This document shows, piece by piece, positions 4,835 to 55,884 of a stretch of DNA of 64,000 nucleotides. This DNA comes from Ostreococcus lucimarinus (taxonomy: Eukaryota): assembly GCA_000092065.1 (NCBI GenBank), contig CP000598.1; one strand, given 5' to 3'. A program made the position numbers and the translations under genes. The notes beneath the pieces were generated by a model, which had not been told where the DNA came from, did not search any database, and saw only the letters and a program-made list of their open reading frames with translations. How positions within the stretch are numbered: position 1 is the stretch's first letter; each line of letters starts with the position of its first letter.

Positions 4835-5330
4835 CGTCGCGCGTTGAAATGCGGCGACGACAAGTGGCGACGGTGACGCGATCTGCCCGCACGCAATTCA
4901 ATTCCTTCGGGTCACCTTATCTTTTGGAGCCCCGGAGATGCGACTGTTTACCAATACGATGGTTCCCTTTTTTCGGTCGCGAAAGCGCGCGGTCGCCGGG
5001 TCAACCAACACCTTCATCTCCGGGGGGGATCGGAGATTGTTTTTTACGGTCGCGCGCGCGGTCGCCGCGGACGCCCCCGCCCTCGTCGACGCCGCGCTGA
5101 CTGTCGCGCGCTGACTGACACGCGCTGACCGACGCGCGCGCGATCGAACGCCGCGAGTGGGGAAAGGCGAACGCGCGACGTCGTCGCGCGCGCCCCCGCG
5201 CGTCCCGGACCGAACCGCGCGTCGTCGTCGTCGCCGTCGCCGTCGCGCGCGTACGCTTCGGACCGCGAAAATCGTTTTTCGTCGCGGGGGGACTGCGGTG
5301 CGGGTCGTCTCACACTTCGGGACGCCGACG

Positions 5331-5669
5331 ATGGTGTCGTCCGGCGACGCCGACGTCGACGACGCGGTCGAACGACGCCATCGGCGCGGTCGCGGTCGCG
5401 CCGTTCGCGATCTTCTGCCGTCGTCCTCGGCGGCGCGCGCGAACACCGTCCCGCCGTTTGAAGCAACCGGTCGAGGCGCGCTCCCGAGGTGGTTTTGCAA
5501 GAGCTGTCGGAAAGCGCTCGACGTGTTTCGTGATTTCGACGGGGAGCTGAAGACGTGTCGACTGTGTTTGCGCGCGCGCAAGAAAGACGCGAAACGCAAA
5601 CGCGCGCTACGGCGGGCGGACGCGAAAAGGTCGGGCGACGGCGACGGTAAAAAAGGCGCGGCTTCGTAG
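5331..5669 (+). CDS. small basic Cys4 zinc-ribbon-like protein (speculative)
   Basis: About 112 aa from the ATG at 5331, with 'WFCKSCRKALDVFRDFDGELKTCRLC' (CxxC-x17-CxxC) and a Lys/Arg tail. It lies in a very GC-rich block where long ORFs arise by chance. Confidence 0.2.
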   Translation: MVSSGDADVDDAVERRHRRGRGRAVRDLLPSSSAARANTVPPFEATGRGALPRWFCKSCRKALDVFRDFDGELKTCRLCLRARKKDAKRKRALRRADAKRSGDGDGKKGAAS

Positions 5670-5968
5670 AGAAGCCGAACGCAGGGAACGACGACGAGTC
5701 GCGGATGCGCGCGAAACGATCGATCTTTGATTCGACACGCCTTCGGTATAGTAGTGTGTTTTGCTCTGTAGCCTCGCGTGTTGTAACTACCGTTGTACAT
5801 TTACATCAATGCGTCGTCGCGTTCGCGGCGATTTTACGTCGTCGTTCGTTCGCGACGCTTCGTTGGACATGGCGCTTCGACACAGAAGAATCCGACGCGC
5901 GCACAGTCCGTGGTGTCGCGCGCACGTCATCGCACACGTCTCATTTCTTATTTCTCCGCTCCAACTCG

Positions 5969-6334
5969 CTATCCTTCTGTCATAAAGCACACCCGGTCCG
6001 CGTCCGGGACGACGTCCTTCTCGTACTCGACGTTCGCGCAGTACATGTGTATTCGAAACAGCGCGCACCCCGTGCCGCACATGCCCGCGTGCACGTGATC
6101 GCCTCGAAAAAATACGACGGCGCCGTTCGGCACGGGCACGAAGTCCGTTGCCTTGGTCGCGTTCATGGGTATCGGCTTCGACACGATCATCGAGATCTGC
6201 TTATGGTCGGAACACTTTCGACCGTCGAGATCCGTGTGCCAGTCTTGGCGCTTCGTCTTGCTCTCGCCCTTCGGGGAGTGGCAATAGATGACGCTCGCGC
6301 CGCGTCGGTCGCCGCTCTCCTTCAACCCGCTCAA
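5969..6334 (-). CDS. 2OG-Fe(II) oxygenase-like domain (prolyl-4-hydroxylase-like). The upstream part, about 6428..6650, is in another frame, so the gene is split or frameshifted
   Basis: 'WHTDLDG' is an HxD motif. 'PNGAVVFFRGDHVHAG...R' supplies the second His and a distal Arg in jelly-roll spacing. The upstream 'MFDPSKERYAVFERCLTDARMKTIRREIIDANP' is in a different frame. The two frames are separated by a roughly 60-nt zone that is closed in both, which suggests an intron or a frameshift. Confidence 0.35.
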   Translation of the reverse strand: MSGLKESGDRRGASVIYCHSPKGESKTKRQDWHTDLDGRKCSDHKQISMIVSKPIPMNATKATDFVPVPNGAVVFFRGDHVHAGMCGTGCALFRIHMYCANVEYEKDVVPDADRVCFMTEG

Positions 6335-7362
6335 GAGCCACCCCTTGCGCGACGCCCGCGCGCTTCAGCGCGGCGCCGCAGTACGGATGGAACCGACGCG
6401 AGGTCTCGGGCGCTTCCCCGCGCGCGTTCACGACGTGCGTCCAGCGACTCTTCGTCCACGCCCCGCCCTTCGCTTCGCGCGCGTCGGTCGAGGGTTGGCG
6501 TCGATGATTTCTCGACGGATCGTCTTCATCCGTGCGTCCGTGAGGCACCGCTCGAACACGGCGTAGCGCTCTTTGGACGGATCGAACATGGCCGCGCCGT
6601 GTGAGGTGCACTGTTTCCCCTTGATCTCCGCCGCGCTCGCTCCCGCCGCGCGCGCGTGTCCAGACCCACGGCGTACGCGAGACGGCGCGTCGTCGCCGCG
6701 CTCGTCGGCTTCCACGCGTTCGGGAACCTGACGTGTTTGGGTAACCCACGAACGGCGCGCGCGGCGAGCGCCTCCAGGCGCGCGCGCCGCGCGGGAACTC
6801 TTCACCGTGCGCGCGTTTCCACTCGGCGAACACGCCGAGGGCGAGCGCGACTACGCGTCGACGGTGCGTTCCGCGAGTTCGCACCCGCGCCGGCGACGCC
6901 TGATCGTCTCGGCGCGCGATCGTCGCGGCATGGGACGCGTTGGAGGGCGGGGGTCGGGACGCGTCGCGGTTTCCCGCGCCGCGCGTCGCGCGTCGTCGGG
7001 TGCTGCGGGGACCGACCCCGCGGTTTTGTGCGAAATGAAATCGTTCGTCTAACCGTACTGCTGCGAGTAGTCTCGGTCGTTCAAGTAAAGGTGGCGCGCC
7101 CAGTGCTGGTCGGCCGGAAACACCACGCGCGAGGGGAGGGGCGGCTGAAAATTCGGTTTCTGAGGTATTCTCGAGCGCGTGGTTGTCCCTCCCGAGCGCG
7201 CGTTTCGCCGTGGAATCGTCCTTCGTCGAGTGCTCGTCGAAGCGTGACTCACCGTCGTCCGCTGACGTGGCGTCACGAGTCGATACGCGATTTCGCGGGT
7301 CACTCTCCCCGATTCGTGAACCGCCAAACGTAAATTAATATCTTTGCGCGCGAAAAAAGATC

Positions 7363-7380
7363 TTTTGACAGCTGTCAAAA
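7363..7380. promoter_or_regulatory. perfect 18-bp palindrome TTTTGACAGCTGTCAAAA (contains an E-box-like CAGCTG core)
   Basis: Read directly from the sequence. It lies in an intergenic GC-poor pocket about 500 bp upstream of the BCCT transporter gene. Confidence 0.3.
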
Positions 7381-7502
7381 AGCCGTTCGAATGCGCGAAC
7401 GCTCGAATGGCGCCGCGCCAGCAGTTCGCCGCGCGCGCGACGAGGCGACGAGTCGATCGACCCGATTCATTGATTTCCAAACATCTTTGATTCGCGATAA
7501 AA

Positions 7503-7528
7503 CGCTCGCTCGCTCGCTCGCTCGCGCC
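7503..7528. repeat. (GCTC)n microsatellite
   Basis: 'cgctcgctcgctcgctcgctcgcg' read directly from the sequence. Confidence 0.8.
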
Positions 7529-7876
7529 ATGAGTGAACCTACGGAAACGAAAACGGCGGACCCGTTGAATTGGAAGAATGAGGAAAACGTCAAGCGCTTC
7601 GTTCGACCGAGTCGCTGGTTGTCTCTCGATATCGCGGGCTACCCGGTGCGTGACACATTTCTGTCGATCGAATTTCGCTCGCGCGTCCTGCGCGAAGCGC
7701 GCGCGTAGGACGCGTTTGGGTCGAATGCACCGCGGCCCGATTTTCGAAATTATTTCGCGCGCGATGACACCTTCGTCACGAGTATCGTCGCTTCTGGCGA
7801 CGTGCGCGCGCAAAGACAACGAACTGGCAAATACAAAATCCATCATCGACTGACTCGCGAATCCCGCGCGACGTAG

Positions 7877-10102
7877 ATGTTGCGCATCAACTGGGTCTCC
7901 GCCGCGCTCGCGTCCTCCCTGCTCTGGGGCTTCATCATCTGGGTGCTCGTCGACGAGACGGGATCGTCAAGCGAAGTGACGCGTTGGACGAAGTGGATCA
8001 CGAGTAACTTTACGTGGCTGTACGTCGTCACGCAGGATGTCTGGTTTATCTTCATCTTGTATCTTTTGGGTACAAAGTACAAAGACGTGAAACTCGGTCG
8101 CGACGACGAAGAACCCGCCTTTGACTATTACGAATGGTTTTCCATGATGTTTGCGTGCGGTATCGGCGTTGGTCTGTACACTTTCAGCGTCATGGAACCC
8201 ATCAGCTACTACCGCGGCGTCGTGTCAAAGCTTCCGATCGTCAACGACGATCAGCGCGCGCAGCAGGCGATCACGCTCACGCTCTTCCACTGGGGCCTTC
8301 ACGGTTGGATTCCGTACGTCCTCGTCGCGATGACTTTGGGCGTCGTGTGCTACCGTCACGGACGTCCGATGACTATCCGCTCCGCGTTTTATCCGCTCTT
8401 CGGCGAAAATATCAACGGTCTCTTCGGCGACGCGATCGACGCGTTGTCCATCGCGACGACGACGTTCGGCGTGTGCACGTCCCTCGGGCTCGGCGTCACG
8501 ACGATCGCGTCTACGATGAACCGCTTGAACAGCGATGTGGATCCAAACGATGACGCCACCAAGATCCTAATCATCTGGTTGATCACTGCCGTCGCATGTA
8601 CGTCGGTCATTTTGGGTTTGAAGAACGGCATCAGAAGGCTTTCCAAGATTACGTTCTCCATCGGTCTCATCTTGCTCTTTGGAATCATCGTCGCGGACAA
8701 CCCTTGGTTCTTACTCAACTCTTTCGTGCAATCGATGGGTCATTACGTGCAATGGGTCACGCAGCTCGGCTGGGACACGGACACGTGGCCCGCGTCCGAA
8801 GCCATCATGCGCGACACGGGCGCTTGGCACTACCTCGCTTGGGGCGCCAAGGGTGAGAGCGATGCGATCGCGCGGACGCTTTCGACGCGTGGCGCCACCG
8901 CCCTGACCGACACTGAGCTTAACACCATGTGGGGCGTGCGAACCGACGACGGTTTCATGAACACGTGGACCCTCTTCTATTGGGGGTGGTGGATTTCGTG
9001 GGCCCCGTTCGTCGGCATGTTCATCGCCAGGATCTCGCGTGGTAGAACCGTCGGTGAAGTCATCAAGGGTGCATTCATCGCGCCTATTTTGTTTGGTTTC
9101 TTTTACCTCACCGTTTTGGGCTCCCTCGGAATCAAAATGGAGCGCATCGCCGAGCTCGCGTTGACGACGGCGCCGGCGGACGTCGACTGGCGAAGCGGCG
9201 ACGTCAAGTGCACCACCCTCGGGTACGCCGCTGACGGGACGCCGACCACCGCCGGATCGATTCAGCTCGCGAAAGAGGGCTACTACGCTCTGTCGTGCCG
9301 TCCGACATCGTCGCACATCCTTGACATCGTTGAGCCTTACGGCAAATTATCGACGCTCTTTCAAGCGATGATTCTCATCGCCATCATCCTGTACTTTATC
9401 ACGTCGTCGGATTCTGGATCGTACGTCGACGACTTGATCTCCGCCATGGGCTACGAAAATCCGCCAGTGTTGCAAAAGGTTTACTGGGCGTGCACCGAAG
9501 GCGCGCTCGCGCAAGCTTTGGTGACTTCCGGCGGCTTGAAAGTGGTGCAAGGCGTCTCCATCGTCTGCGGTTTGCCGTTTACGTTTGCTCTCAACTTTAT
9601 GGTCGTCTCTCTCTGGCGCGCGCTGAAGGATGAATTCAACGACGAGGCGCAACAAAAAACTCGCAAGGGGTTCAATACGTGCATGCTGGACGTCCTCGAA
9701 GGGTACGAGCCGGAAACCGCAGGCGCGAACGCGCCGGATCGCAAAACGCGCGTCGTCGCCGCATTGAAAAATTTCATCTACCCGTTCGACGCGATTCGCA
9801 AGGCGAAGATCGCCGTGGGGACGGATGAAAAATTTGCCTCCATCAACGCCGCCGTGGTCACTGGCGTGCTGTGGACTGCGATCGGTCTCCTCGCGTCCAC
9901 GAAAGCCGGCGCGGGCGCGCACTCCGTGGCGTGGCTCTTCTACCTCATCTTGATTTTCTGCATCGCGAACATTCGCCGAGAAGTTCGCGCGTCCAGAAAC
10001 ATTCTCGGTAACATCATGGAGGATTACACCGCCGCTGCTTTGTATCCGCTCGCGCTCGCGCAGATGGAACACGAGGCTGAATCCGACCCGAAGCTGGCGT
10101 AG
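7877..10102 (+). CDS. BCCT-family (betaine/carnitine/choline) transporter
   Basis: 741 aa with multiple TM segments. The BCCT signature is 'WTLFYWGWWISWAPFVGMFIARISRGRTVGE', and 'MFACGIGVGLYTFSVMEP' is the glycine-rich TM motif. Confidence 0.85.
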   Translation: MLRINWVSAALASSLLWGFIIWVLVDETGSSSEVTRWTKWITSNFTWLYVVTQDVWFIFILYLLGTKYKDVKLGRDDEEPAFDYYEWFSMMFACGIGVGLYTFSVMEPISYYRGVVSKLPIVNDDQRAQQAITLTLFHWGLHGWIPYVLVAMTLGVVCYRHGRPMTIRSAFYPLFGENINGLFGDAIDALSIATTTFGVCTSLGLGVTTIASTMNRLNSDVDPNDDATKILIIWLITAVACTSVILGLKNGIRRLSKITFSIGLILLFGIIVADNPWFLLNSFVQSMGHYVQWVTQLGWDTDTWPASEAIMRDTGAWHYLAWGAKGESDAIARTLSTRGATALTDTELNTMWGVRTDDGFMNTWTLFYWGWWISWAPFVGMFIARISRGRTVGEVIKGAFIAPILFGFFYLTVLGSLGIKMERIAELALTTAPADVDWRSGDVKCTTLGYAADGTPTTAGSIQLAKEGYYALSCRPTSSHILDIVEPYGKLSTLFQAMILIAIILYFITSSDSGSYVDDLISAMGYENPPVLQKVYWACTEGALAQALVTSGGLKVVQGVSIVCGLPFTFALNFMVVSLWRALKDEFNDEAQQKTRKGFNTCMLDVLEGYEPETAGANAPDRKTRVVAALKNFIYPFDAIRKAKIAVGTDEKFASINAAVVTGVLWTAIGLLASTKAGAGAHSVAWLFYLILIFCIANIRREVRASRNILGNIMEDYTAAALYPLALAQMEHEAESDPKLA

Positions 10103-10458
10103 TAACGTCGACGCCGTCCAAGACTTCTTTTTTCCAAACCGTCCTTTTATTAATCGAGCTCGATGACGACGAGTCGCAGACTTTTCGTTCATCAAGAGCA
10201 ATCAAATCACGTTGGGTGAGCGATCACCGTTCACGGGCCCGCGAGGCCGGTGAGCTTTTACCATCGGTTGACCTGCGTCGTCGTCACCCGTACGCGTTGG
10301 AACAAATCATACGTGTTGTGCGTGTTGTCCACCGTCGCCGCTCGAACTGCATCCAGCGTCGACGGTGCTCGTTGTTGTGTTTGACTTTATTACATTTCTC
10401 TCATCGGTCCTACGTAATACTTTGGCTGACATGAATTAATTTAATAACCACAAGAAAT

Positions 10459-11085
10459 TTACTTTACGAAACCGTCGTCGTCCGCGCGCCGCGTCCGCGC
10501 GTTCGCGTCGTTCATCTTGAAAACACCCGCGAGATACCGATAGATGAATCCAGAGTACGGTACCACCGCTCGCCGGTCTCTCGCTCGCGACGCGTCGCCG
10601 ACGGCGGTGGACGTCGTGCGACGTTCTGCGTCGGGAACGCGCATGGCCTCCGACGCGCCCGGGACGTAGTTTTCGTCGCGCGTCGTCTTCGTGTCACCGC
10701 CACGTCCGACCGATTTCTTTGACGCCTTCACCGACTTGAGGAAATGCTTTTGCGCGTGCGATCTGATTTGCGCCGCCGTCCTCGTCCCGACGTGTGTTTC
10801 GATCCGTTTCCAGTCGCGATCGTACAACTCGAGCGCGCGTAAAAACTTGTCGTGTTCGATCCTCGTCCACGGCGCGCGCGTCTTCGTTCGCACGTACGGT
10901 TTTCGCGGTTTCTTTGAACGCATCAGCGGCGCGCGCGCCGTGGTGGCTCTCGCCCGCGCGGCTTCGTTCTCGCTCGCGATTTTTCGTACGGCGGCGTCGA
11001 CGAGCGCCCGCACCGAGAGCGACGACGACGACGACGGCGACGTCGTCGCGTGTTTTTCGCTGTTTGGGCGGTCGTCGTTCGTCAT
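10459..11085 (-). CDS. MYB-related (single Myb/SANT repeat, SHAQKYF class) DNA-binding protein
   Basis: '[48 protein letters not shown]' is the canonical SHAQK(Y/H)F Myb-like domain of the plant/algal RVE/CCA1-like family. It has a Ser-rich N-terminus. Confidence 0.8.
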
Positions 11086-11775
11086 CGGCGACGGCGCGTC
11101 GGCGTCTGCCGCGTGACGAACTACAAACGCCCGATGAGACTCCGAGAAGACGACGACGCGCGCGGACGCGCGTCCAATCTCCAGGGCGCGTCGTCATACA
11201 ACCACTTTATATAGAATAATTCGAATTATTATACTGCCTCAAAATCAATATAATGACGACACGCATACCAGTTTACCGTAGAAATGGTAATAGCCCTTTC
11301 GCCAATCGAAGCTCGCGGGTAAGGTCGGTCGATACACACACGTCACGTTTCCTCAGGCTGAGAGCGCCACGCCTTTTGACGCGAGCGATACTGCCTTGAG
11401 CCTTTCTTCACGAGTTTCACCGTAGCGCATCGCACAAGAAAACACAAAAACTCAGCCCTGCGTAGACAGACGAGGGTGGCGCCGGAGTATGACGGCGAAA
11501 CGCGCCGCACGAGTTCAACGGGTTTCTCTCCAGAGCACTGGAACGGCGCGTTTTTTGTCGCGAATCCACGCAGCCCTTCTCTACCGCCGTAAAAGGTAAG
11601 TGCTTGTTGAAAAGCCGTGATTGCTTGCTGCTGCGTTGTCGCGTCAGCCGCTTCGCGCACGTATAAGCCCGCCGCGAGCCGTGAAAGTAAACGGGTACTC
11701 CGTGATGAGCGCTGTTTTTGGAAATCGGGATCCTCGTGGCTCCCAACGTTGTTAGCGAAAGGATGGAACGTGCAT

Positions 11776-12108
11776 TCAGACCGTCGCCGTGTTCGGCTCC
11801 CGTATATTTGCCACGCACTCGTCGTGCGTATACTTCACCTTGTAGTAGGGGTCGTTTTGCTTGCGCTGGTTCGCAACGAAACCCCGGCCGCGACCACGTC
11901 GAGCACACGATCGTTGCCGTGATAACCTGCGATGGTTGCGCGTAAAATGCGAGCAGCGCACCGCAGCGAAGGCAGCACCGCTCAACGCGTACCGGAGAAA
12001 GGTATACGAAGCGATCGCCGCGGGCGTCGCGAGATACGTTTGGTATCCTAGTTTGAGCGGTCTATCGGCGTCGTAGAAAACTTCCGGGGCGGGGAGTATG
12101 GAGTTCAT
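11776..12108 (-). CDS. hypothetical small membrane protein (possibly an exon of a larger gene)
   Basis: 110-aa ORF with a hydrophobic segment and 'NQRKQNDPYYKVKYTHDECV'. The overlapping 163-aa ORF in another frame suggests an unresolved exon structure. Confidence 0.2.
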   Translation of the reverse strand: MNSILPAPEVFYDADRPLKLGYQTYLATPAAIASYTFLRYALSGAAFAAVRCSHFTRNHRRLSRQRSCARRGRGRGFVANQRKQNDPYYKVKYTHDECVANIREPNTATV

Positions 12109-12387
12109 TCAGCCAATGCTTACTCGCCGTAGTCGGTTCATCTGTCGACATGCGTGCTGTGACTCAGGATGCGCGGCAGTGGCGCGTATCGTTAGACTTG
12201 CGACGGTGTGTCTCGCCAGAAATCAAAAGCACACATTTATTGAGTCGGGATGGCGTGGTGTTGTAAGTATTTACGTGGATTTAGCTCATGGCTATTAAAT
12301 GCACGCCGAGGAAGTATGCCACACATACGACGCATCGTGAGTGCGACAAATCTAACATTGCTACCGCGAGAACGTTCGAGTGTGTCT

Positions 12388-13344
12388 TCAAATCAGCGCG
12401 ACGCCAGGAGACCACGGAAAGCGTCCCGCGAATCGTCGCCGAGGACACGCGTCTAAATACGTCCAAAACGATTTGAGTGATTTCACCGTTGAGCTATATG
12501 ACGCGCGTTCGTTGAACGGATCCAGTGCTTGCCCCGTCGACCCGACGTCGTTTCGACACCCGTACGGATCGCGCGCGAACGCATCGCACGCTTTCGCTTC
12601 GCGCGTCGCCAGTTCGTTTTCGTTCACCGCCGCGGTACCGATGTAGGTCATATTGCTCCAGGAATACCCCATCGCGTCGAGATGAAGCTTTTCGAACCGC
12701 GCGCGCTCGACGTGAAACCCGACGACGGTGATCTTTGAAGGAAACTTTCGAGCGAGTTGAAAGAACCGACACACGCTGAATAACGCGTGCTCGAACCCGT
12801 CGTTCGCGTGTTCTTCCGTGAACGTCCTAGACTCGACCTTCGCGTCGACGCCGAACCAATCGTTCGCCCTGGCGACTTGCCAATACGAGCTCGCCCGAGT
12901 CATCACCGCGCCGGCGTCGATTGATTTTCCTCCACTGAAAACGAGCACTGCGTGTGGGTTCCTCGCTGCCTCGCGAACACCGATCTCGATGTGTTCGACC
13001 AGCGACCGTACGTATCCTTCCGACGACGTTTGATCGCGCTCTAAAGCCCAGTCGCCCGGGTCTTCCGCGGCTTTCGCGAAATCGCTACCCAAGTAAACCG
13101 CGCGCGCGGGAACGACGACGAGCTCGTCCACGTCCGTCACCGCGGGCACTATCTTCTTCTCCTGTGCGCTCAGTCGCATCACCGTGTGCGTGATCGCTGC
13201 TCGCGGCGCATGATTCGTCCTCCTGAGCGCTTCTATCGTGACGCAACACACGCACAGAAGAAACCAGAGCGAACGTTCGAGGTTAAGAATCCTCGTCGCG
13301 CGCTTCGCCCACATCCGAGCGTATCGAGTGAACGCATACGTCAC
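12388..13344 (-). CDS. DUF218 (YdcF/ElyC/SanA-like) domain protein
   Basis: 'VVPARAVYLGSDF...HAVLVFSGGKS...' resembles the DUF218 core (a conserved ...SGG... after a beta-strand). The N-terminus is hydrophobic. Confidence 0.4.
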   Translation of the reverse strand: MTYAFTRYARMWAKRATRILNLERSLWFLLCVCCVTIEALRRTNHAPRAAITHTVMRLSAQEKKIVPAVTDVDELVVVPARAVYLGSDFAKAAEDPGDWALERDQTSSEGYVRSLVEHIEIGVREAARNPHAVLVFSGGKSIDAGAVMTRASSYWQVARANDWFGVDAKVESRTFTEEHANDGFEHALFSVCRFFQLARKFPSKITVVGFHVERARFEKLHLDAMGYSWSNMTYIGTAAVNENELATREAKACDAFARDPYGCRNDVGSTGQALDPFNERASYSSTVKSLKSFWTYLDACPRRRFAGRFPWSPGVALI

Positions 13345-13543
13345 GCGATCGCGGACTCGCGATGCGTACGTCGACGCGTTCGGCGCCGCGACGTCGTCGA
13401 CTCGTCGGCGGACGCGCGCGCGTGTCCTTCGTCGCGCGCTGTGCAGGGCCGGAGTTTTTCACGCCCTCGGCTGCGTCAAACAAAAACCCGTCCTCCGAAA
13501 CACACCGGCGTCCTCACACCGCCGCGCTCGCGGCGTCGCCTCG

Positions 13544-21401: not shown

Positions 21402-21538
21402 TGATTATATCATTCTGTGCGTTTAAACAAGAAAGATCAGGTATTTTCAAACGAGTGTAGCGGCGCGTTTTTATGCCTTCTATCTTCAAACGCGGAGCTA
21501 GAAATACCAAATCTCATCGACGCTACTAGAGTTCCTCA

Positions 21539-40440: not shown

Positions 40441-40450
40441 AGTTAACGTG

Positions 40451-43796: not shown

Positions 43797-44069
43797 TAGT
43801 GACATCCTCTTCTTGGTAGCGCTCTTGCGCGCGGCAATCTCGCGACATATTCAAGAGATGTTTAGCCTTAGTAATCTAGTACGTAGTGAATAAATACTAT
43901 CAGTTTTAGAGCGAACGCTATAAGTTTTCACGGCGATGTCGTTCAAGGGTGAGTACGAGGTCACTCCGGCTTCATACACGGTCGCTATCGATTCAAAGCT
44001 CACACGACGCATACGATCGCCATTTCCCATCCCCGGTGCGCATTACCGCGAACGCATCGCGCACAAATA

Positions 44070-47044: not shown

Positions 47045-47071
47045 TGCCGCAACTCGAAGCGGATCAATCTA

Positions 47072-48313
47072 CTAGACTGCGTTGGCGACTCCAAGGAGAC
47101 TGAGCGCGTGATCGAGAGAAGTACGAAAACGTTCAGGCGGTATCATAAAGTCGCGTTTCAGTTCGGTCAGACAGGCACTTTCAAAGCACTCCGCAATGGT
47201 CTTCGTAACGGCGTGCGTTTGATCGCCGAGAGCGTACGTGTGGAACAATCCGGCGTTCCGTGCGATTTTTGCGTAGAGCTCATAGTACCAAACCGTCGAA
47301 GGAAAGAGCTCAATGACTGCGCTTTCTCGTTGCATGAATATAACGTTCGTAAGATCGGCGCCATGCGATGAAATGAGCAAGTCTGTTTCTGACATGAGGG
47401 ACACTTGCTCCTTGAAAGAAAGCGTATCGAGCCGAACAGTTTTGTACCAAAGTCGACGCTCATCCAATATTTCTTGTAATTCGCCTACGTTAGTGACACG
47501 TCTCTTCTTTCTATCAATCAGTGTCACTCGCAAATCCGCTCTGTTTATTCGTTTCGGGTTGATTTTGAGATTGCCATACACTCGGTCTCGAAATAATTGA
47601 GCGTCATATGGGCCTTGAAGTAAACCTATCATAGTTCCAGCGACGACAACTCTTCTGGCACAAATAGGCGATGTCAACTCGTCACCATAAACGACCCTGA
47701 CGTCGCCAAAGATCTGCTGAGTCAAACTATCAATCCAACTTTGAGCGGGCGGCCGCTGTCTAAAAATTATCACGACAGAAGAGCTATCCGAATTCTCTAG
47801 CGTCCTGAGAGCGCTGTGAAAAAAGAACATGGCAGATTGCGCGAAATGAAAGGGATTTGCGCCGCGTTTGTCGTCTGGAGCGATCACGAACAGATTCGAC
47901 GTGTGGTTCTTATTGAGAGCGTGCGTGAAAATCACCGGGTCGACTTTTACGTCCACGTACGCCCTCAGTGGTAGCTGGTGAAACTTTGACATATCCACCG
48001 TGGGTAAGTTGGAAAGTCTACTGATTTCATGCCCGTCCGATTTGAGCGTCGTAAGCGCTGTCGAGACCAAAAGTCCACCACGTGTGACGCATACATCTTC
48101 TAACACGCAATACTCGTCGTAGTCGGGCGTCGTGAAGCAACTCGAATTAGTTCTCTGTGACGTCACGTACCTTTGAGATCTGAGCTGAGTAGACCCGTAG
48201 AAGAGCGCTGATGAGAGGAAAAACGCACGCATCATTCGTGTTCGCTCACGGCGTTTCACCGGCATCGCACTGTCCTTGACGTCGATATCTCGCTCTAGGG
48301 TGTGGAATCTCAC
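47072..48313 (-). CDS. glycosyltransferase family 61 (DUF563)-like
   Basis: 'SFKEQVSLMSETDLLISSHGADLTNVIFMQRESAVIELFP' matches the GT61/DUF563 signature (sF.EQv.l...tdvliGvHGAGLTn.lF..p...viEl.P). The N-terminus is hydrophobic. Confidence 0.7.
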   Translation of the reverse strand: MRFHTLERDIDVKDSAMPVKRRERTRMMRAFFLSSALFYGSTQLRSQRYVTSQRTNSSCFTTPDYDEYCVLEDVCVTRGGLLVSTALTTLKSDGHEISRLSNLPTVDMSKFHQLPLRAYVDVKVDPVIFTHALNKNHTSNLFVIAPDDKRGANPFHFAQSAMFFFHSALRTLENSDSSSVVIIFRQRPPAQSWIDSLTQQIFGDVRVVYGDELTSPICARRVVVAGTMIGLLQGPYDAQLFRDRVYGNLKINPKRINRADLRVTLIDRKKRRVTNVGELQEILDERRLWYKTVRLDTLSFKEQVSLMSETDLLISSHGADLTNVIFMQRESAVIELFPSTVWYYELYAKIARNAGLFHTYALGDQTHAVTKTIAECFESACLTELKRDFMIPPERFRTSLDHALSLLGVANAV

Positions 48314-48622
48314 GTATACCGAAGTGCTATCAACGCCCGTTCCGTTGTTTCACGCGACGCCATATCCGCGCAGCAGCTTTAATGCGCATCCAAAGTTAAA
48401 GTTTCATAGTAGAGCGCATCGAGTTATCGTGAGCACCACTCGTCTTAGAGTACACCACGTGTCAACAAGTGCGGCGTGCCTCTCGATTTTGAAATTTCTG
48501 CGCAAACGAGGGCGCCTTTCGCTCGTTCGCATACTCGTTCCACTCCGCGACGCGTTCGATTTACAACGGCACGCTCATACACATAGACTCGGGTAAATCG
48601 CAGTGATTATGAGCTTTTCGAC

Positions 48623-49828
48623 ATGTCCACCGCAGCCATGAAAACCTCCGCACGTCGGCTCGGTTTGCGCGTGCTGTTGGCTTTTTGGTTGTTGAAGTTT
48701 GTATTGTCTTTGCAGTTCATAACACGCGGATGCGAGCGCTCGGTGAAGTATTTGAGCGAGATGTGGATGCGAGAAGATGCTTGGACGCACTGTCGGAACT
48801 GCTGCGGCGACGTGAGGGAACGAATGCTGAAGTTCAGTTCATTTGGCTTGGGTAAAGACGTCGCGTGTTTCACCATTCATCCGGAGGCGACTTCGCCGTC
48901 GTCGTACACCTTCGTCGCACGCAGGCGTGAACCGCTGAATCGTAGCTACTTTAAAAGTGCCCTGCGGTTTCTCCGAGACGTCGCTGTGGAACGGCGACAG
49001 AACCAAGGAGAACGAAGCGACGTGGCTCTACGACTCCTTTGGGTGATTGACGACGATGCCTCTATGCCGAGGGAGCTGAAACGGGAATTGAAATCCTTGA
49101 ACACTTTCATTCTGGCGCATTCTATCAATGTGGATTGTTTCACCGACGAATCAGTCGTGCTCGCGCCAAACTTCCACTTCATCAAGCGCGACGGGTTCAA
49201 ACCGTTGCTTCGGAATCTGCGTGAACGTGAGATTCCGTTTGATGAACGCAAATCCGACGTATTCTGGAGAGGCTCGACGTCTGGTATGTCAACAAAATGC
49301 GAAATAGAAGAACCCGCTCGCGTCGACGTGAACGAAAGGGTTACCGCGTGCGTTGAACTTCCGCGCGTGCGAGCGGTGCAATCATCCATAAATGTTCCTT
49401 GGCTCGACGTCGAGATCACGCGAAGGGTACAATCGTGTAAAGGACAAACAAATGTACGCATTAGCCCGCACGTATCGGAACAGCATTGGATCACGCACAA
49501 AGGTATCCTCGAAATCGATGGAAACGTCGACGCGTGGGGAAACCGTTGGCGCATGGAAAGCGGGAGCGTCCTGTTCCTCGTCAAGTCAAATTTCAAGCAC
49601 TATTACAGCGACAAGCTGGTAGATGGAGTACACTACATCGGAATATCTGGAGATTTGCACGATTTAGTGGAAAAAACGAAGATTGTGGCGAACACCGATG
49701 GCGAATCGCTAACGAAGTTGCGTGATATCACAGCAAATGCTCGCGCGTTGATGCAAGAATTTACGTACGAGCGCGTCGTCAAGGGCGTTTCCCATCGTCT
49801 GAATGAGCTAGCCTTAGGTATGGTATAG
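48623..49828 (+). CDS. glycosyltransferase family 90 (CAP10/POGLUT/KDELC-like)
   Basis: 'DVFWRGSTSG', 'KGILEIDGNVDAWGNRWRMESGSVLFLVKS', 'VHYIGISGDLHDLVEKTKIVANTDGESL' match the Glyco_transf_90 core (ffWRG......yKY..diDG...s.r......sgSvvlk......hY.P...d.sdL.ek). Confidence 0.75.
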   Translation: MSTAAMKTSARRLGLRVLLAFWLLKFVLSLQFITRGCERSVKYLSEMWMREDAWTHCRNCCGDVRERMLKFSSFGLGKDVACFTIHPEATSPSSYTFVARRREPLNRSYFKSALRFLRDVAVERRQNQGERSDVALRLLWVIDDDASMPRELKRELKSLNTFILAHSINVDCFTDESVVLAPNFHFIKRDGFKPLLRNLREREIPFDERKSDVFWRGSTSGMSTKCEIEEPARVDVNERVTACVELPRVRAVQSSINVPWLDVEITRRVQSCKGQTNVRISPHVSEQHWITHKGILEIDGNVDAWGNRWRMESGSVLFLVKSNFKHYYSDKLVDGVHYIGISGDLHDLVEKTKIVANTDGESLTKLRDITANARALMQEFTYERVVKGVSHRLNELALGMV

Positions 49829-49854
49829 TATTAAATATTACGATCTAGCGACAA

Positions 49855-50056
49855 CTACTGCCGAATTCTTTCAGAGCGGCGAGTAAAACCATCGCGCGAA
49901 CCAAGCGCGAACATCTTGATCGTCAGCGCTATCGACAGAAATTTCCATATTAGTCGACGTTGGGTGCTCAAAGTTTGAACACGTGAAACCAAAATTGAGG
50001 TCCGGTAGAAAGTTGTGAAGCAAAGCGTTCTCGGCAAGTACACCATTTTCGAGCAT
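49855..50056 (-). pseudogene. gene fragment paralogous to the middle of the 51001..53277 glycosyltransferase
   Basis: 'LLHNFLPDLNFGFTCSNFEHPTSTNMEISVDSADDQDV..RAWFARWFYSPL' aligns to 'LLHKLLSSHNFGFFCSNFMHPTVENLELSIDEEGNLVC...RRWLRDWFYGPI'. Confidence 0.5.
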
Positions 50057-51000
50057 CAGACTGAAATACGCCTGGAGATCGTACTCTGGCGGCGTTCTTC
50101 ATAGACACCTCGAGGTGCGTCAATGCGTCAGAGCTTCCCAGGCCGACGCTGAGTAGAACGTTTGTTGCACATCTCTCACCGCACGGACGTCCAAGCGCGA
50201 GATGTCCCGGTAGAACATGGAATGCGCGTTCTTCACCGCGCCAACGTTGCAGTTCCTGATATCTCCGTTCAAGGTACTCTTGTACTGAAACAAATCGCGC
50301 GTGTCATCCACCGCGCTCACGTCCCAGTTCGCGATCGGCACGCTCGACGACGCGCTCCCGCCGACGTCGCCCCCGTGGCGTCGCCGCCGAGACAGTTAGC
50401 GTCGGCGATCGCGAATATCAGCGACCAATACGTCATGAACGGCGACACGTACCTGCTCGCCGAGCTCCACGCCGTGCGTGCCCCTTCCGCGCGCGTCGTC
50501 CCGACGACGCCCGCGCCCGTGGGCACCGTCCGCATCCTCGTCCGCGAGAATCGCCGCCATTCGCGTTTCGACGCGTTCTCCTTCTTCGCGCGTCGCGCTC
50601 GCGCACCCGCGTCGTCGGCGTCGTAATCCCTCGTCGCACAGCGCGCGACGATCGGTGCCGCGCTCGGCGCGCGAACGACGCTCGCGCGCGCGCGGTTCTG
50701 GGGCTAAAGTTTCCACGTCGGTTTGGACGTTAGGCTCTCCCTCGAAGGTGCCATGGGTGTGTAGAGGGCGTTTGGGGCGCCGAAGGGGGATAACCGCCGT
50801 CACAAGGCGTGGGGACGTTCTCCGCGTCCGCTACGCACGACGCGCGCGAGATCATCTTCACCGCGCACCCGGATCGACGCACCGAGCGAGACGCGCGCCT
50901 CGCCGACACCCTCCTCTAAAACGGACCGCGACGGCTCTGTTTCGCGTGACGCTCCGCATTACGAGCGACCGCGTCCGCGGGGACGCGGCGCGCACGTCGC

Positions 51001-53277
51001 GTGATGTTCGCGTGCGATGCGCGGGCGACTCTGCCCGCGCATCGAACGCAGCGGCGCGCGCGACGACGAGCGCTTCCGATAGTACTCGTCGCGCTGTGCG
51101 CGTGCTGGCTGTGCAGAGAGCGCACGCGCGAGCGCGCCCGAGAAAGCGATGATGTTGCACTCCAACGTAAAAAGTCGCGAGTGGTCGTCGAACCGTGCAT
51201 CGGAGGTCGGCTTGAAGCGTCGATAGCCGACGAACCGGAATCGATTCGCTTCGCTACGTTTGCCTTTGCGCGGAACGCTGGCAAAAGATGGAGCGTGGAA
51301 AGCACGAAGATAGCTTTGCGGCTCATGTACTCGTCGTTGGCGAGATCGCAAGCAAGGAAACCGCCGTGTTTACACGTGTACACGGACACGCCGGGCGTGA
51401 TTCCGCTCAAGACCACGTTTGGCACAGAGGTTGACGTAATCACGCACGCGTGCGACTCGCAGTCTTTTCCGCCAAACGCTTACACGAACGTCGGGCCGTG
51501 GGCGGCGCTTTCACGAGCGAAACTTGATGCTGTAGAACATTTAATGACGGTGTTCGGTGCGAGGGTGATATGGATCGATCTCGACACTCTCGTCTTCGTA
51601 GACTTGGGACAGACGTTCAGGCAAAGCTCGTCGTGGGTCGTGGGTTACCAAAGAGGCGCGCACTGCGAGGGAATAAGAGCATGTTTTCATTCCGCGCACT
51701 CTTCGGTTCGACCGGAATTCGACGCACTCGGAGATCTCTGGTCGCTCGATCGCGAAACAATAGCAAAGGTCAGAGACTTTGAACGGAGGAGGATTACGTC
51801 CAGCGCGAGGACGCCACCGAAATACGATTTACAAACGTATTACGGACAGATGCTCGAGGAAGAAATGTTATCGAGCGATGTGTTGCTGCACAAACTTTTG
51901 TCGAGTCATAACTTTGGTTTCTTTTGTTCCAACTTCATGCATCCGACGGTTGAAAACTTGGAACTTTCAATTGACGAGGAGGGGAATCTCGTCTGTCCTC
52001 GACGGCCGGATGTCAAAATGGGCGAACGCGTGGGCGCGATTTCGTTCACAGCCAAGACGTTTCAAAGTATGTTTTCCGCAGACGGCGATGTATTCGAAAA
52101 CATAGCGCATCCCGGAGCGCGACGATGGCTGCGCGACTGGTTTTATGGTCCTATCGCTAGAGGGAGCAACGGCTCGGCGCGCCCCGGCGTCGACAAAAAC
52201 GTCGATTCAAAGCCGAAGACTGATCACGAGCGAATGGTTTTCACGCCAATGAAGCCATCGAGCGATAGGTACGACGACACAGATATCGTTTCAGTTAAGC
52301 GATGGTACGGTCGGCTCGGCAATAGGGTACGGATATTTGCGATGATGCTCGAGGACGCGCTGGTCCGCGGTTGTCACGTGCGCATACTCGACGACATACT
52401 ACCGGGATGGAGATCAGAAAATACGTTTTTCGCAAACAAACAGATCGATGGTGTGCGGAATAAGCGTGCTGCGAAGAAGTGTCAGAAACTGAGCGGGCGT
52501 CGCTGGTACGATACGTACCTCAAATCGAAAGATGCGCTTCGTCAACAGAACGGTTTTGCAGACGACCGAATGTCTATACCAGACGGGTCTGTCGTAACCA
52601 ATGCTATCTCGCGTTACTTTGAAACGAACGTGACGCACGCGTTTGGTCGTGCCTGCGAGAGTGTCGGCGATGATGTGCTCGCGGTGCACGTGCGCGCGGG
52701 AGACATCGTCAGCGGCTCCTACAGTCGTTGGACGGGTCATTTCGTTGCGAAAGAGCCGTCAAAGCACACGACGTACGGACCTTTTCCGACGTCGTACTAC
52801 GCGAGCGTGCAGAGTTACGCTTCGGAATCGGCATTACAAGTGCGAGTTTTCTGCGAAGACTTGAACAATCCAACGTGTATGTTTTTTCAACAGCTCGCCG
52901 CGGTACTTCCAAACGTCACCATGAGACTTGGACGGGACTTGATTTCTGACTTGGTGGAGTTTAACTGCGCCGCTCGCGTAGCGTTTTCGTACGGCTCGTT
53001 TCGAGATGCGCTAGTTCTAAGAAATCGTCCTTTACGAACGCACGACTTTTTCTTTGACAGAAATGAAGCCGAGACTACGTGCTCGCGCGCGTCGCGTGGA
53101 TCGAGCGCGCGACACCGCCGGTATTTCTTCGCGTTGAAAAGCGACGAAATAGAGTATCAAAAATGGATTCGCCGGAATAACTGGCGCAACACGGCGAGGC
53201 AGCGCCACTTGGTTGACAAACACTATCAAATTGGTTTCGTTGAATGCGAGAACCGTGGAAAGGATTTCTTCGGGTAG
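51001..53277 (+). CDS. two-domain glycosyltransferase: an N-terminal GT-A-like nucleotide-diphospho-sugar transferase domain and a C-terminal O-fucosyltransferase/GT23-like GT-B domain
   Basis: The TM anchor is 'LPIVLVALCACWL'. 'ARVIWIDLDTLVFVDL' is a DxD-type motif. The C-terminal half has 'WYGRLGNRV' (GG.GN(Q/R) motif I) and 'LAVHVRAGD' (the HxR.GD motif of POFUT/FUT8-type enzymes). The start is uncertain in the GC-rich 5' part. Confidence 0.45.
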   Translation: MMFACDARATLPAHRTQRRARRRALPIVLVALCACWLCRERTRERARESDDVALQRKKSRVVVEPCIGGRLEASIADEPESIRFATFAFARNAGKRWSVESTKIALRLMYSSLARSQARKPPCLHVYTDTPGVIPLKTTFGTEVDVITHACDSQSFPPNAYTNVGPWAALSRAKLDAVEHLMTVFGARVIWIDLDTLVFVDLGQTFRQSSSWVVGYQRGAHCEGIRACFHSAHSSVRPEFDALGDLWSLDRETIAKVRDFERRRITSSARTPPKYDLQTYYGQMLEEEMLSSDVLLHKLLSSHNFGFFCSNFMHPTVENLELSIDEEGNLVCPRRPDVKMGERVGAISFTAKTFQSMFSADGDVFENIAHPGARRWLRDWFYGPIARGSNGSARPGVDKNVDSKPKTDHERMVFTPMKPSSDRYDDTDIVSVKRWYGRLGNRVRIFAMMLEDALVRGCHVRILDDILPGWRSENTFFANKQIDGVRNKRAAKKCQKLSGRRWYDTYLKSKDALRQQNGFADDRMSIPDGSVVTNAISRYFETNVTHAFGRACESVGDDVLAVHVRAGDIVSGSYSRWTGHFVAKEPSKHTTYGPFPTSYYASVQSYASESALQVRVFCEDLNNPTCMFFQQLAAVLPNVTMRLGRDLISDLVEFNCAARVAFSYGSFRDALVLRNRPLRTHDFFFDRNEAETTCSRASRGSSARHRRYFFALKSDEIEYQKWIRRNNWRNTARQRHLVDKHYQIGFVECENRGKDFFG

Positions 53278-53705
53278 GCTGAGAGCGGTTGCATCGGCTC
53301 AAAGTGGCATAGTGCTTGAAACTAATTAAGCGTCTTGTGTCTGTCAGTCATAACCACCTTTGCGAGAGGCGATTGTCCGTCATGGTCGTCGGTTCAGCCG
53401 TGCATAGGAATCATTTTAGCGATAGCAAAGGGAGCGAATGGTACACGATCAAGGTGGTCGAGCTTCTCACGCGACGCGGCCACGACATCGTGCAGCGGCT
53501 GAGCGCGCTCCCGGATGACGATTTCGTCTATCTGGCGAACGCGCGGTACTTTTTTCCCACTGGCGGCGGGTACGGAGGACAGGCGAGCATTTGCGTCGAA
53601 AGACTCGGTGGAACGTCGAGCTGGTGGCGCTGGTTTCGTCATCGAAAAGTTGAGCGCTGACTCGAAAGGACGTGCCCAGTGATTTACAAGAGTGTCTATC
53701 ACTTA

Positions 53706-54743
53706 CTACGAGTTTAGGGAATTTTCCACGCCCTCAATACCACCATCGAAGCGAATGAATGCGAATTCGACGCACATTTTGTGCAATAGTGAATACTTGA
53801 TATTCGGCTCTTTGTGGAAAATGTAAAAGTTTTCGTCGTGAAGGCGTCGGAAGAAACGTTTCGCCACCGGCTCGCGCAAAGGGTCGAGCGCGCCGCGGCC
53901 GAAAAGTTGATCGCCGACGATCAGAGAGAGCCACGATTGATGTACTTCTTTCAAGTTCGAGTCAATCGTGCCCGCGTGTATTTCCACGAGCATTTCATCG
54001 ACGCGCACGTCGGCGTCGATCCAGCTGCCGTAAGTGCTCCATTCGCAGCCTTCGCAGTCAATTTTTAATACGTCTATCGTCCTTCCTTTGTGACCGAGCG
54101 CGACGACGACGTCGGCTAAACTTTTCAAATCGCTCCCATCGGGTTCGCGCGCGCCTCCTAATCCCCATGGTTGAAAGTGGACACCGCACGGTTTGTTTCG
54201 CGGGTTCGACACCGTGTGATCGAACACGTGTATTTCGCACGCGCTCGACACGTCCCGCATGATCGCTTCTTCGAAACTAAAGTCATCGAAACTTCCGACG
54301 CTATATATCAAACCGTCCGCCCCCCGCGCGCGCAGACGGTTCGGGTCGCACAAACACTTCCCACCCTCGCCAGCTGGACCGACGCGCTCTTCGCGCGCGC
54401 ACGTCACGGCGGGCTCCACGTTGTCTTGGTACCAACCGTCGGCTCTCTGCGTACCTCCGCGCGAGACGGTGTCGAAGAGCGCGTAGCGCTTGAGCTTATC
54501 GGCGTTGATCGCGTTGATCGCGCGATCGAAGGCGGCGTCGACGTCTTTTGCGATCGGCGCCGTCGAACGCGTCGGCTTCGGTTGTGCGCACGAGTGCTGT
54601 TCTTCGACCCGAGCACGCACGGGTTTGGCGAGGTGATACCGTGTGAACAGGGTGAAACACGCCGCGAAAAGCAGCAACGCGCTGATTTCTCGCGCGCGCT
54701 TCGATCGTGCGAGGACGGAGCCGTTCGAAGCGAGACGAATCAT
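53706..54743 (-). CDS. FkbM-like methyltransferase, type II membrane topology
   Basis: The anchor is 'ALLLFAACFTLF'. 'LIYSVGSFDDFSFEEAI' and 'IDVLKIDCEGCEWSTY' match the FkbM LKIDvEG motif. Confidence 0.45.
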   Translation of the reverse strand: MIRLASNGSVLARSKRAREISALLLFAACFTLFTRYHLAKPVRARVEEQHSCAQPKPTRSTAPIAKDVDAAFDRAINAINADKLKRYALFDTVSRGGTQRADGWYQDNVEPAVTCAREERVGPAGEGGKCLCDPNRLRARGADGLIYSVGSFDDFSFEEAIMRDVSSACEIHVFDHTVSNPRNKPCGVHFQPWGLGGAREPDGSDLKSLADVVVALGHKGRTIDVLKIDCEGCEWSTYGSWIDADVRVDEMLVEIHAGTIDSNLKEVHQSWLSLIVGDQLFGRGALDPLREPVAKRFFRRLHDENFYIFHKEPNIKYSLLHKMCVEFAFIRFDGGIEGVENSLNS

Positions 54744-54900
54744 GAAACGAACGACGAATACTGCGGGAAGAGAAGTGAGGTGAGTGATTACGCACGTGAC
54801 GAGAATGATACACTATGATGCGATTTCGAGACTACATCACTACACGTTGAGCTAGAATCTACGTACGATCGATCGCGCCAAATGGTTTCCACCGACTTCT

Positions 54901-55779
54901 TCACGACGCATAAATGTCCCCTCCCCGCGACATTTCGCTGTAGTGCTTCGTCGCTCGAGGCAGCTTAAAGTGCAACAACACCTCCTCGTCTGTGCGCACG
55001 TCCGCGACGCGTCGACTCGCCGCGCTCAACGCGTCTCTATGTTGCACGCGCCAACGGAACTCGATCGAATCTCCATCCGCGATGCTTTCGTAGAGCAACG
55101 CGGGCCCGGTGTAGTACAACGAATGATAAAAGTGTTGTCGGTCGGCGACGTTCGCGGCGATTTTGTCCATCGCGCGCGCGAAAACATCCAACCCGGGGAC
55201 CGCCACCATGAACGCGTTCCACACTTGTTTCGGCCCGCCCGCGAGTTTGTACACGCGTCTGTCGTACACGAACAACGCGTCGTGGCGCATATCGTGGGTC
55301 AATTCGTCGAGAGACTTCACCAGTAAAATGTCATCGTCCATCCAAGCGCCGCCTTCGGTGTACAGAATGCAGTACCGCAACAAATCAGCCTTGAACGCGA
55401 GTGGTTTTAGTGCTCTGTACGCGCGTAAATATTTTTTGCAGTTCGTTTCTATATACTCGGCTCCGCCGTACACGTCGTACGTCTTCAACGTCCACGTCGG
55501 GTTGAGTCGCGTGGTGATTTTTAACGGGAACGACGAATCGTTCGGTAACGTCAGGGTGTGCAACTTGCGAGGTAAAGGCTTTGTGTCAGTCGTCGTTGTC
55601 CATAACACCGGTACTGGTACGTCGTTCCAATGACTTTGTAAACCTCGCCAAAATGCTTGAAGCAAAAGTATACTTGCTATGGTGACGAATAGTACGAACG
55701 CGAACGTTCGTGTAGTCTTGCGACGAATATAGCGTGAGACGATGGTAAACGACTCGTTCCAAATGCCTTCGCCTTTCAT
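54901..55779 (-). CDS. glycosyltransferase family 32 (Och1/alpha-1,6-mannosyltransferase-like, DxD)
   Basis: 'KADLLRYCILYTEGGAWMDDDILL' is the GT32 signature (kaDllRy.iLy.yGGiYlDtD). The anchor is 'FAFVLFVTIASILLL'. Confidence 0.75.
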   Translation of the reverse strand: MKGEGIWNESFTIVSRYIRRKTTRTFAFVLFVTIASILLLQAFWRGLQSHWNDVPVPVLWTTTTDTKPLPRKLHTLTLPNDSSFPLKITTRLNPTWTLKTYDVYGGAEYIETNCKKYLRAYRALKPLAFKADLLRYCILYTEGGAWMDDDILLVKSLDELTHDMRHDALFVYDRRVYKLAGGPKQVWNAFMVAVPGLDVFARAMDKIAANVADRQHFYHSLYYTGPALLYESIADGDSIEFRWRVQHRDALSAASRRVADVRTDEEVLLHFKLPRATKHYSEMSRGGDIYAS

Positions 55780-55884
55780 ATCTCGCGAGGAGAAATTTGT
55801 GACGAAGAAGCCCTCGTTCGCGCGAAACGTTTCGTTCAGAGTGTTGCGGAATCCGCCGGCTTGCCTTATTAAAGGCTCGTTACA

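Follow-up and report, generated by a model that had tools for sequence, protein, structure and literature searches.

A compositional mosaic in 64 kb of Ostreococcus lucimarinus DNA that is probably part of a small outlier chromosome

The 64-kb stretch of Ostreococcus lucimarinus DNA analyzed here (contig CP000598.1; hereafter the window) is dominated by glycoconjugate and methyltransferase genes and alternates sharply between GC-rich, CpG-rich DNA and DNA of lower GC. Among its approximately 33 genes, at least 14 belong to sugar metabolism and five encode methyltransferases. Pfam profiles recognize four SDR sugar enzymes (dehydratases/epimerases), a UDP-glucose dehydrogenase (UGDH), a UDP-GlcNAc 2-epimerase fusion and two transporters of the nucleotide-sugar/triose-phosphate type, together with GT17, GT61, GT90, GT8, STELLO and DXD glycosyltransferases, three FkbM proteins, a Methyltransf_22 protein, a C5 DNA methyltransferase (DNMT), a BCCT transporter and a Myb protein (Table 1). 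A copia reverse transcriptase (RT), a GT-AG intron and nucleotide-sugar transporters are eukaryotic marks, and the copia RT, the spliceosomal intron and the green-algal homologs exclude a giant-virus or bacterial origin of the window. The intron (107 nt, 39174-39280) lies in the 4,6-dehydratase gene, where its removal is needed to obtain the Rossmann N-terminus; the spliced product fits the full Pfam profile. We consider it likely that the window is a piece of a fast-rearranging, glyco-gene-rich small outlier chromosome (SOC), in which segments with the signature of standard chromosomes are spliced to near-equilibrium cassettes and a retroelement.

Table 1. Compositional segments, gene blocks and genes of the window. 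GC3, GC content at third codon positions; CpG o/e, observed/expected CpG ratio; ORF, open reading frame.
Feature	Position	Strand	Description
Segment	1-4478		GC 0.53
Very-high-GC segment	4479-7023		GC 0.66 (sub-part 6628-7023, 76%); mostly phantom ORFs; arrangement differs between strains
Segment, native-type block	7024-13343		GC 0.57; CpG o/e 1.72; includes orf110 and orf308
Segment	13344-15820		GC 0.67
Segment	15821-50068		GC 0.50
Very-high-GC segment	50069-51140		GC 0.67; no clean ORF
Segment	51141-55628		GC 0.54
Segment	55629-58593		GC 0.42
Segment	58594-64000		GC 0.50
orf843	2303-4834	-	Thr/Ser-rich; N-terminal hydrophobic stretch by eye; native-type (GC3 0.72, CpG o/e 1.43)
Real-looking exon	5972-6301	-	GC3 0.81; motif WHTDLDG...DHVHAG, dioxygenase-like
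orf265	7049-7846		No codon periodicity; probably phantom
BCCT transporter	7877-10102	+	Native-type block
Myb	10459-11085	-	Native-type block
DNMT	13544-15880	+	DNA_methylase, mono-CXXC and Tudor (Pfam); GC 66%, GC3 0.78, CpG o/e 1.87
Intermediate glyco block	15997-23795		GC3 0.51-0.68; CpG o/e 1.44-1.75; includes orf305 and orf347
FkbM methyltransferase	17433-18542		Intermediate glyco block
GT17	18840-20162		Intermediate glyco block
Nucleotide-sugar transporter	20379-21401		In intermediate block; itself of the high class
Low-GC CpG-neutral cassette block	24742-36575		Pooled genes GC 0.477, CpG o/e 1.07; spacers 1.44; includes orf310 and orf517
FkbM-2	26987-28195	-	Low-GC cassette block
TPT-STELLO fusion	28695-30980	+	Low-GC cassette block
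GDP-sugar reductase/dehydratase-like (Rmd-like)	31358-32602	-	Low-GC cassette block
UGDH	32856-34277	+	Low-GC cassette block
4,6-Dehydratase (RHM/GMD-type)	38175-39364	-	Native-type (GC3 0.72, CpG o/e 1.80)
Intermediate-to-low block	41427-49828		GC3 0.47-0.60; CpG o/e 1.20-1.57; UDP-GlcNAc 2-epimerase fusion, FkbM-3, orf441, GT61, GT90
DUF285 surface-repeat fragment	50123-50335	-	Pfam E=4.8e-12; left edge of segment 50069-51140; intact upstream ORF absent
Native-to-intermediate glyco block	51004-55779		54% GC; CpG o/e 1.72; includes orf757
Methyltransf_22	53706-54743	-	In block 51004-55779
DXD glycosyltransferase	54901-55779	-	In block 51004-55779
copia-type RT/RNase H fragment	55629-58593 (ORF 56093-58015)	-	GC 42%; CpG o/e 0.75; TpG/CpA 1.22
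UDP-glucuronate 4-epimerase-like	58832-60196	+	Low-GC; CpG o/e 1.11
GT8	60260-61252	-	Low-GC; CpG o/e 1.02

The window as a whole has 52.3% GC and a CpG o/e of 1.51. Measured in 500-bp steps, GC ranges from 0.40 to 0.72 with a standard deviation of 0.065, threefold the binomial value of 0.022, and two components describe the distribution best, one centered on 0.495 (71% of the steps) and the other on 0.591 (29%). Jensen-Shannon segmentation yields nine segments, against a single one in all five homogeneous Markov simulations. The GC mosaic described in the initial annotation is therefore strong, although its contrast of 68 versus 45% was overstated: the three blocks put at about 68% have 61.1, 59.1 and 56.3% GC and the DNA between them 49-50%, not 45%. 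A GC content of 66-67% is reached only in three short segments of approximately 6 kb in total (4479-7023, 13344-15820 and 50069-51140). The boundaries, said to be abrupt and to fall between genes, are indeed abrupt, with transitions finished within 200 bp at about 7.02, 15.82, 50.1-50.4 and 51.14 kb, but with the closest gene end 25-355 bp away they match gene limits little better than random positions would at such gene density. The recursive segmentation left 15.8-50.1 kb undivided, and the finer classes there come from per-gene statistics, in which GC3 (0.41-0.78) and CpG o/e (0.75-2.06) form continua and not two clean classes.

To speak of CpG-saturated codons, as the initial annotation did, is incomplete. 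The excess of CpG is found at codon positions 1-2, 2-3 and 3-1 and also in intergenic DNA (1.2-1.9), and is thus neither a codon effect nor an artefact. As had also been noticed, the GC-rich parts give long Arg/Ala-rich phantom ORFs on both strands. There is no clean ORF in 4835-7048 (except the exon at 5972-6301), in the stretch called orf265, or in 49829-51003 (except the DUF285 fragment). Codon-position GC periodicity is absent from the ORFs of 4.8-7.8 kb, including orf265 and those called in other strains (302 and 446 aa), which were therefore judged phantom. The motif of the exon at 5972-6301 recalls Fe(II)/2OG dioxygenases, Pfam assigning no family; upstream of it, to about 6960, the coding signal shifts frame repeatedly, via introns or frameshifts. 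A Pfam search with orf843 gave no match.

Which of the two compositions is the norm of the host? The baseline is taken from housekeeping loci of relatives (loci L002, L024 and L026), in the first of which a BCCT ortholog (86%) lies next to PDCD2, IPPT and a dynein heavy chain. These loci have a GC of 0.577-0.60, a GC3 of 0.63-0.85 and a CpG o/e of 1.3-1.95 per gene and 1.59-1.67 overall. From GC3 and CpG o/e, three classes of window genes were drawn up (high, intermediate and low), with the copia fragment kept apart. The high class comprises orf843, BCCT, Myb, orf308, DNMT, the sugar transporter at 20379, the 4,6-dehydratase, Methyltransf_22 and the DXD glycosyltransferase. Relative synonymous codon usage (RSCU) correlates with that of a relative's housekeeping genes at 0.96 for the high class, 0.84 for the intermediate, 0.12 for the low and -0.26 for copia, the native pattern being a strong preference for GCG, ACG, CCG, TCG and CGC. 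In the same order, CpG o/e falls from 1.71 through 1.58 and 1.11 to 0.75, while TpG+CpA rises from 0.84 through 0.96 and 1.16 to 1.22. Codon usage thus differs sharply between gene classes, as the initial annotation held.

The RSCU correlation of 0.96 and the relatives' CpG o/e of about 1.6 together identify high-GC, CpG-rich DNA as the ordinary composition of the lineage. The initial annotation had the frame inverted: only the low class is atypical for the host (CpG o/e 0.84-1.33 versus 1.4-2.1), and the anomalies are the CpG-neutral cassettes at 24.7-36.6 and 58.8-61.3 kb, partly 44-47 kb, and the copia fragment. The closest BCCT and one DNMT homolog of relatives occupy housekeeping neighborhoods, the latter being a 44% homolog of another alga that lies among ChlH, PPR and RbcX genes. 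In one such standard-chromosome locus (L024, 4000-6000), short spikes of 69-79% GC stand between ChlH and a PPR gene, so that kb-scale GC peaks are not specific to the island.

Expression-linked selection on codons offers another account of the classes, in which highly expressed genes keep NCG-rich optimal codons and inducible cassettes lose them. The high class does share its NCG-preferring codons with housekeeping genes, and SOC expression is low without virus challenge (PMC5498103). However, non-coding DNA and all three codon-position pairs show high GC and an excess of CpG to the same degree, and the most GC-rich stretches are largely non-coding, which makes this account very unlikely.

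The DNMT provides the link to a particular chromosome. Its closest named relatives are Ostreococcus proteins, and it is 59% identical to O. tauri CAL58430/XP_003084365, which has the same three domains and is encoded on CAID01000019.2 (chr19). Chr19 is the SOC of O. tauri, and a C5-methyltransferase has been noted there (PMC5082852). A second O. tauri paralog is more distant (43%) and sits on an 835-kb standard chromosome. The SOCs of the Mamiellales (O. tauri chr19, O. lucimarinus chr18, Micromonas RCC299 chr17 and Bathycoccus chr19) have a published GC of 51-53% (PMC3491373); about 20% of their genes serve sugar metabolism and 6-10% methylation, and they contain transposons, lack synteny and are hypervariable (PMC3491373, PMC5082852, PMC5498103). 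The GC of the window falls within this range and below the 57.7-60% of the relatives' standard loci, and its gene content, in which glycosyltransferases, nucleotide-sugar enzymes and transporters, FkbM and other methyltransferases prevail, fits the published inventories (PMC3491373, PMC5082852). Further likenesses are the DNMT marker common to the window and O. tauri chr19, the retroelement, DDE transposon material and DUF285 genes, a DUF285-type protein being drawn also on the published O. tauri chr19 map. The locus is hypervariable and rearranged between strains, and with the examined O. tauri chr19 segment it has only the DNMT in common and no synteny beyond it. Both show a sharp GC/CpG switch beside this gene.

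Some features set the window apart from the published descriptions. Both it and the O. tauri chr19 piece are mosaics and not uniformly low in GC. The window carries BCCT and Myb, and a relative's BCCT is on a standard chromosome. It is moreover a 64-kb piece in which no telomere was seen, where a separate small chromosome would measure about 100-400 kb, and 64 kb cannot prove chromosome identity.

The mosaic recurs in O. tauri. In 22 kb of chr19 around its DNMT (L027), GC stays at 0.60-0.76 and CpG o/e at 1.7-2.05 through the DNMT (GC3 0.72, CpG o/e 1.91); about 0.5 kb past its stop codon the genes fall to a GC of 0.45, a GC3 of 0.45-0.46 and a CpG o/e of 0.94-0.99. The high/low pattern of the window is thus also present in one examined segment of a reference SOC. 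The two also share a finer structure: the spacers of the low block have a CpG o/e of 1.44 versus 1.07 in the gene bodies at equal GC, and in O. tauri chr19 (L027, 12300-21878) the values are 1.37 and 1.05. The single spacer at 30981-31357 holds 47 CpG against 24 expected (z=5.9).

Comparison with other strains, represented by metagenome contigs of 97-99% identity, locates breaks at the compositional joints. The block at 6.9-15.8 kb is kept in nine contigs, and contigs break or rearrange at window positions 5440 (L012), 6547 (L015), 15767 (L011) and 32812. The break at 15767 adjoins the GC boundary at 15820, at the 3′ end of the DNMT (15767-15820). Three arrangements occur upstream of UGDH (32812): that of the window, Rmd-like gene included, in one strain, window 6194-7040 in inverted orientation in a second (L018) and a DDE transposase in a third (L021); the Rmd-like cassette is thus missing or replaced in other strains. 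The transposase occupies L021 3-1727, and L018 2-1600 carries a repeat-rich 532-aa ORF. This cut-and-paste between strains at compositional joints agrees with the mechanism published for O. tauri chr19, namely translocations from standard chromosomes together with massive internal rearrangement and duplication (PMC5498103).

Transposon debris lies at the same places. The copia fragment is inside a palindrome with inverted arms of 619 bp (55908-56526 and 57945-58563), which are 100% identical and into both of which the RT ORF extends; such a structure points to an inverted duplication of very recent date or else to an artefact of assembly. Pieces of the arm, about 85-175 bp long and 88-98% identical, recur at block junctions (24394-24567, 40461-40544, 55885-56059 and 58412-58563), suggesting transposon-mediated rearrangement; the first of them (97%) marks the start of the CpG-neutral block. 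The junction at 39857-40544 joins a ghost copy of the ends of the orf517 cassette to a copia-arm fragment. In this ghost, 39857-40439 matches 34476-34690 and 36434-36801, the flanks being 85% and 97.6% identical and the gene body deleted. Upstream of the UDP-GlcNAc 2-epimerase fusion, 41004-41232 repeats the 3′ end of GT90 (49603-49831) in inverted orientation at 90% identity.

Could the assembly have fused DNA of different organisms into a chimera? The perfect inverted repeat around copia could be an assembly artefact. However, independent contigs cross the joints at 15.8 kb (L001, 100% identical, and L010), at 7.0 kb (five contigs) and over 36.6-39.5 kb (L018-L020), and the reference O. tauri chr19 has the same pattern, so that a chimera is extremely improbable.

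Why, then, do two compositions stand side by side? An explanation has to accommodate the observed locus identity, the compositional classes, the strain-level cut-and-paste and the same mosaic in O. tauri chr19. Mutation-accumulation data for four Mamiellophyceae give an equilibrium GC (GCeq) of 37-46% versus an observed 56-64% (PMC5455958). As mutation is AT-biased, the high-GC state must be sustained by a non-mutational force, and population data back GC-biased gene conversion (gBGC) in O. tauri (PMC5498103). Standard DNA, with about 58-60% GC, a preference for NCG codons and a CpG o/e of about 1.6-1.8, would be upheld by such a force, the literature pointing to gBGC and/or selection as candidates. 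DNA that escapes it would be expected to drift to the values of the low class and of copia. On the SOC, segments with the standard signature would then be spliced, through rearrangement, duplication, transposon activity and translocation from standard chromosomes, beside cassettes and a retroelement near mutational equilibrium; sharp boundaries would consequently be rearrangement joints. The cassettes and the retroelement do have a GC3 of 0.41-0.53, flat codon usage, a CpG o/e of about 1 and raised TpG/CpA. We infer that reduced gene conversion, and not foreign origin, holds the low class low.

Several observations weigh against this reading. Although the DNMT is an old resident, carried on the SOC by O. 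tauri and this alga alike, in neither is another gene as rich in GC and CpG; it thus prevents the equation of high GC with recent arrival from being general. The spacers of the low block are CpG-rich and its gene bodies neutral, the reverse of what simple neutral decay would produce. For the Rmd-like gene, the ortholog of a sister species (L007) shares the low GC3 and CpG, but synonymous divergence (dS) is only 0.20, so that shared ancestry suffices and the likeness is no proof of equilibrium. Among singletons, the high block has 69 strong-to-weak versus 52 weak-to-strong changes, an implied GCeq of about 0.53, and the low block offers just eight usable single-nucleotide polymorphisms. As a side observation, the Rmd-like gene evolves fast: the ratio of nonsynonymous to synonymous divergence (dN/dS) is 0.56 for the pair with L007 versus 0.18 for the BCCT pair, whose dS is 0.46.

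The old GC-rich DNMT, the CpG contrast of spacers and genes and the undecided tests of direction keep a foreign origin alive as a rival. Here the low-GC, CpG-neutral cassettes would have been acquired horizontally, from bacteria, prasinoviruses or other eukaryotes, with a turnover that outpaces amelioration, and the high-GC genes would be native. In its favor are a flat codon usage that bears no relation to the native one, CpG-neutral gene bodies between host-like spacers and the presence or absence of the Rmd-like cassette by strain. According to published analyses, putative horizontal transfers are enriched among SOC genes and plant orthologs frequently missing (PMC3491373), and the long-resident DNMT has kept its native composition, which indicates that the SOC environment alone does not force a low GC. 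Conversely, N-terminal hydrophobic stretches of low-class proteins read by eye as eukaryotic Golgi-type anchors, the TPT-STELLO fusion resembles a TPT-glycosyltransferase fusion on O. tauri chr19 (PMC5082852), the intermediate class bridges both extremes and the low-class composition equals the expected mutational equilibrium (PMC5455958). Homologs of the Rmd-like protein mix eukaryote-length and bacterial-length proteins at similar identity, and IMG/VR scans with four low-class genes found no close viral relatives, including prasinoviral ones, by a method that detects close relatives only. Horizontal acquisition is on balance a less probable, though serious, explanation. The proposal of the initial annotation, an island of relocated native genes and foreign ones, is thus supported in its native half (codon usage, housekeeping neighborhoods, cut-and-paste between strains and PMC5498103), while the foreign source of the low-GC genes is unproven.

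A different cause would be CpG-to-TpG decay driven by dense silencing methylation of normally silent cassettes and the transposon, perhaps by the SOC-encoded CXXC-Tudor DNMT, with the spacers spared. Loss of CpG is mirrored by gain of TpG/CpA across the classes, most strongly in copia, gene bodies are depleted in CpG relative to the adjoining spacers, and much of O. tauri chr19 is transcriptionally silent in virus-susceptible cells (PMC5082852). Nevertheless, published methylomes put CG methylation lower in outlier regions than in standard DNA (bioRxiv 10.1101/2025.04.21.649811), and the shift extends beyond CpG to GC3 and all of the dinucleotide signature. In addition, the closest solved structures to the catalytic domain of the enzyme are the bacterial M.HhaI and M.HaeIII. 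CG methylation in Mamiellales, located in nucleosome linkers, is ascribed to DNMT5 (PMC5082852, citing earlier work). Pfam finds only DNA_methylase, mono-CXXC and Tudor in the present protein, and as a SNF2-type ATPase and a RING domain are missing it is not DNMT5. A 150-200 bp peak in CpG density, which would mark linker methylation, is absent from the sequence. Decay by methylation is quite unlikely as the source of the classes. That a DNMT is present while CpG is undepleted, as the initial annotation remarked, is true but poses no island-specific paradox, since the CpG excess is lineage-wide.

It is conceivable, though we think it unlikely, that SOC cassettes have an architecture of their own, with CpG-neutral, flat-codon gene bodies set within CpG-rich spacers by silencing marks or foreign influx. 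It could arise under a distinct chromatin or methylation regime, for example with the CXXC-Tudor DNMT marking silent cassettes that then undergo CpG-to-TpG decay. Alternatively, a steady influx of foreign cassettes might be caught between host-derived regulatory spacers. If such an architecture existed, composition would be a readable record of silenced or recently acquired immunity cassettes.

Other systems resemble the locus in part. The big outlier chromosome of Mamiellales (BOC1), which carries the mating-type region, likewise has low GC, transposons and sharp boundaries, ascribed there to suppressed recombination; however, it is rich in housekeeping genes and introns and has PKS genes, whereas the window has few introns and is rich in glycosylation genes. 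With the genomic islands of prokaryotes and the accessory chromosomes of fungi the locus shares an atypical composition, content that varies by strain, remnants of mobile elements at joints and a role in host-parasite interaction. It differs from them in that the present setting is a eukaryotic nucleus, no tRNA/integrase boundary is present and the low-class genes look adapted to a eukaryotic secretory pathway. Vertebrate CpG islands are also short, CpG-dense, GC-rich stretches, often at gene 5′ ends, but here the background itself is CpG-rich (1.51 in the window, 1.6-1.7 in relatives) and the exception is the CpG-neutral gene body.

Under the SOC reading preferred here, the mosaic is a further instance of a known phenomenon and no new kind of system. 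The low GC and hypervariability of SOCs, translocations from standard chromosomes, an SOC-borne DNMT and AT-biased mutation countered by gBGC have all been published. What the analysis adds is the probable placement of a 64-kb stretch from an abundant marine picoalga on its outlier chromosome, a chromosome associated with virus resistance (the tie to prasinovirus resistance being known only for O. tauri, PMC5082852), and a compositional key. In this key GC3, CpG o/e and TpG/CpA split native-type genes, intermediate genes, CpG-neutral cassettes and transposon debris. It also works on O. tauri chr19 and could serve to annotate SOC pangenomes and to probe the origin of cassettes.

Three minor observations concern single features. 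Within orf310, a 90-bp tandem duplication at 24819-24994 repeats a 30-residue peptide (HVNKYTMTQTLQGDGFGSQFQNI...). On the minus strand, the 112-aa ORF at 37042-37380 matches only the N-terminal domain of UGDH and is probably a pseudogene fragment of the neighboring UGDH. The right edge of the window (63818-64000) holds a perfect 56-bp tandem repeat.

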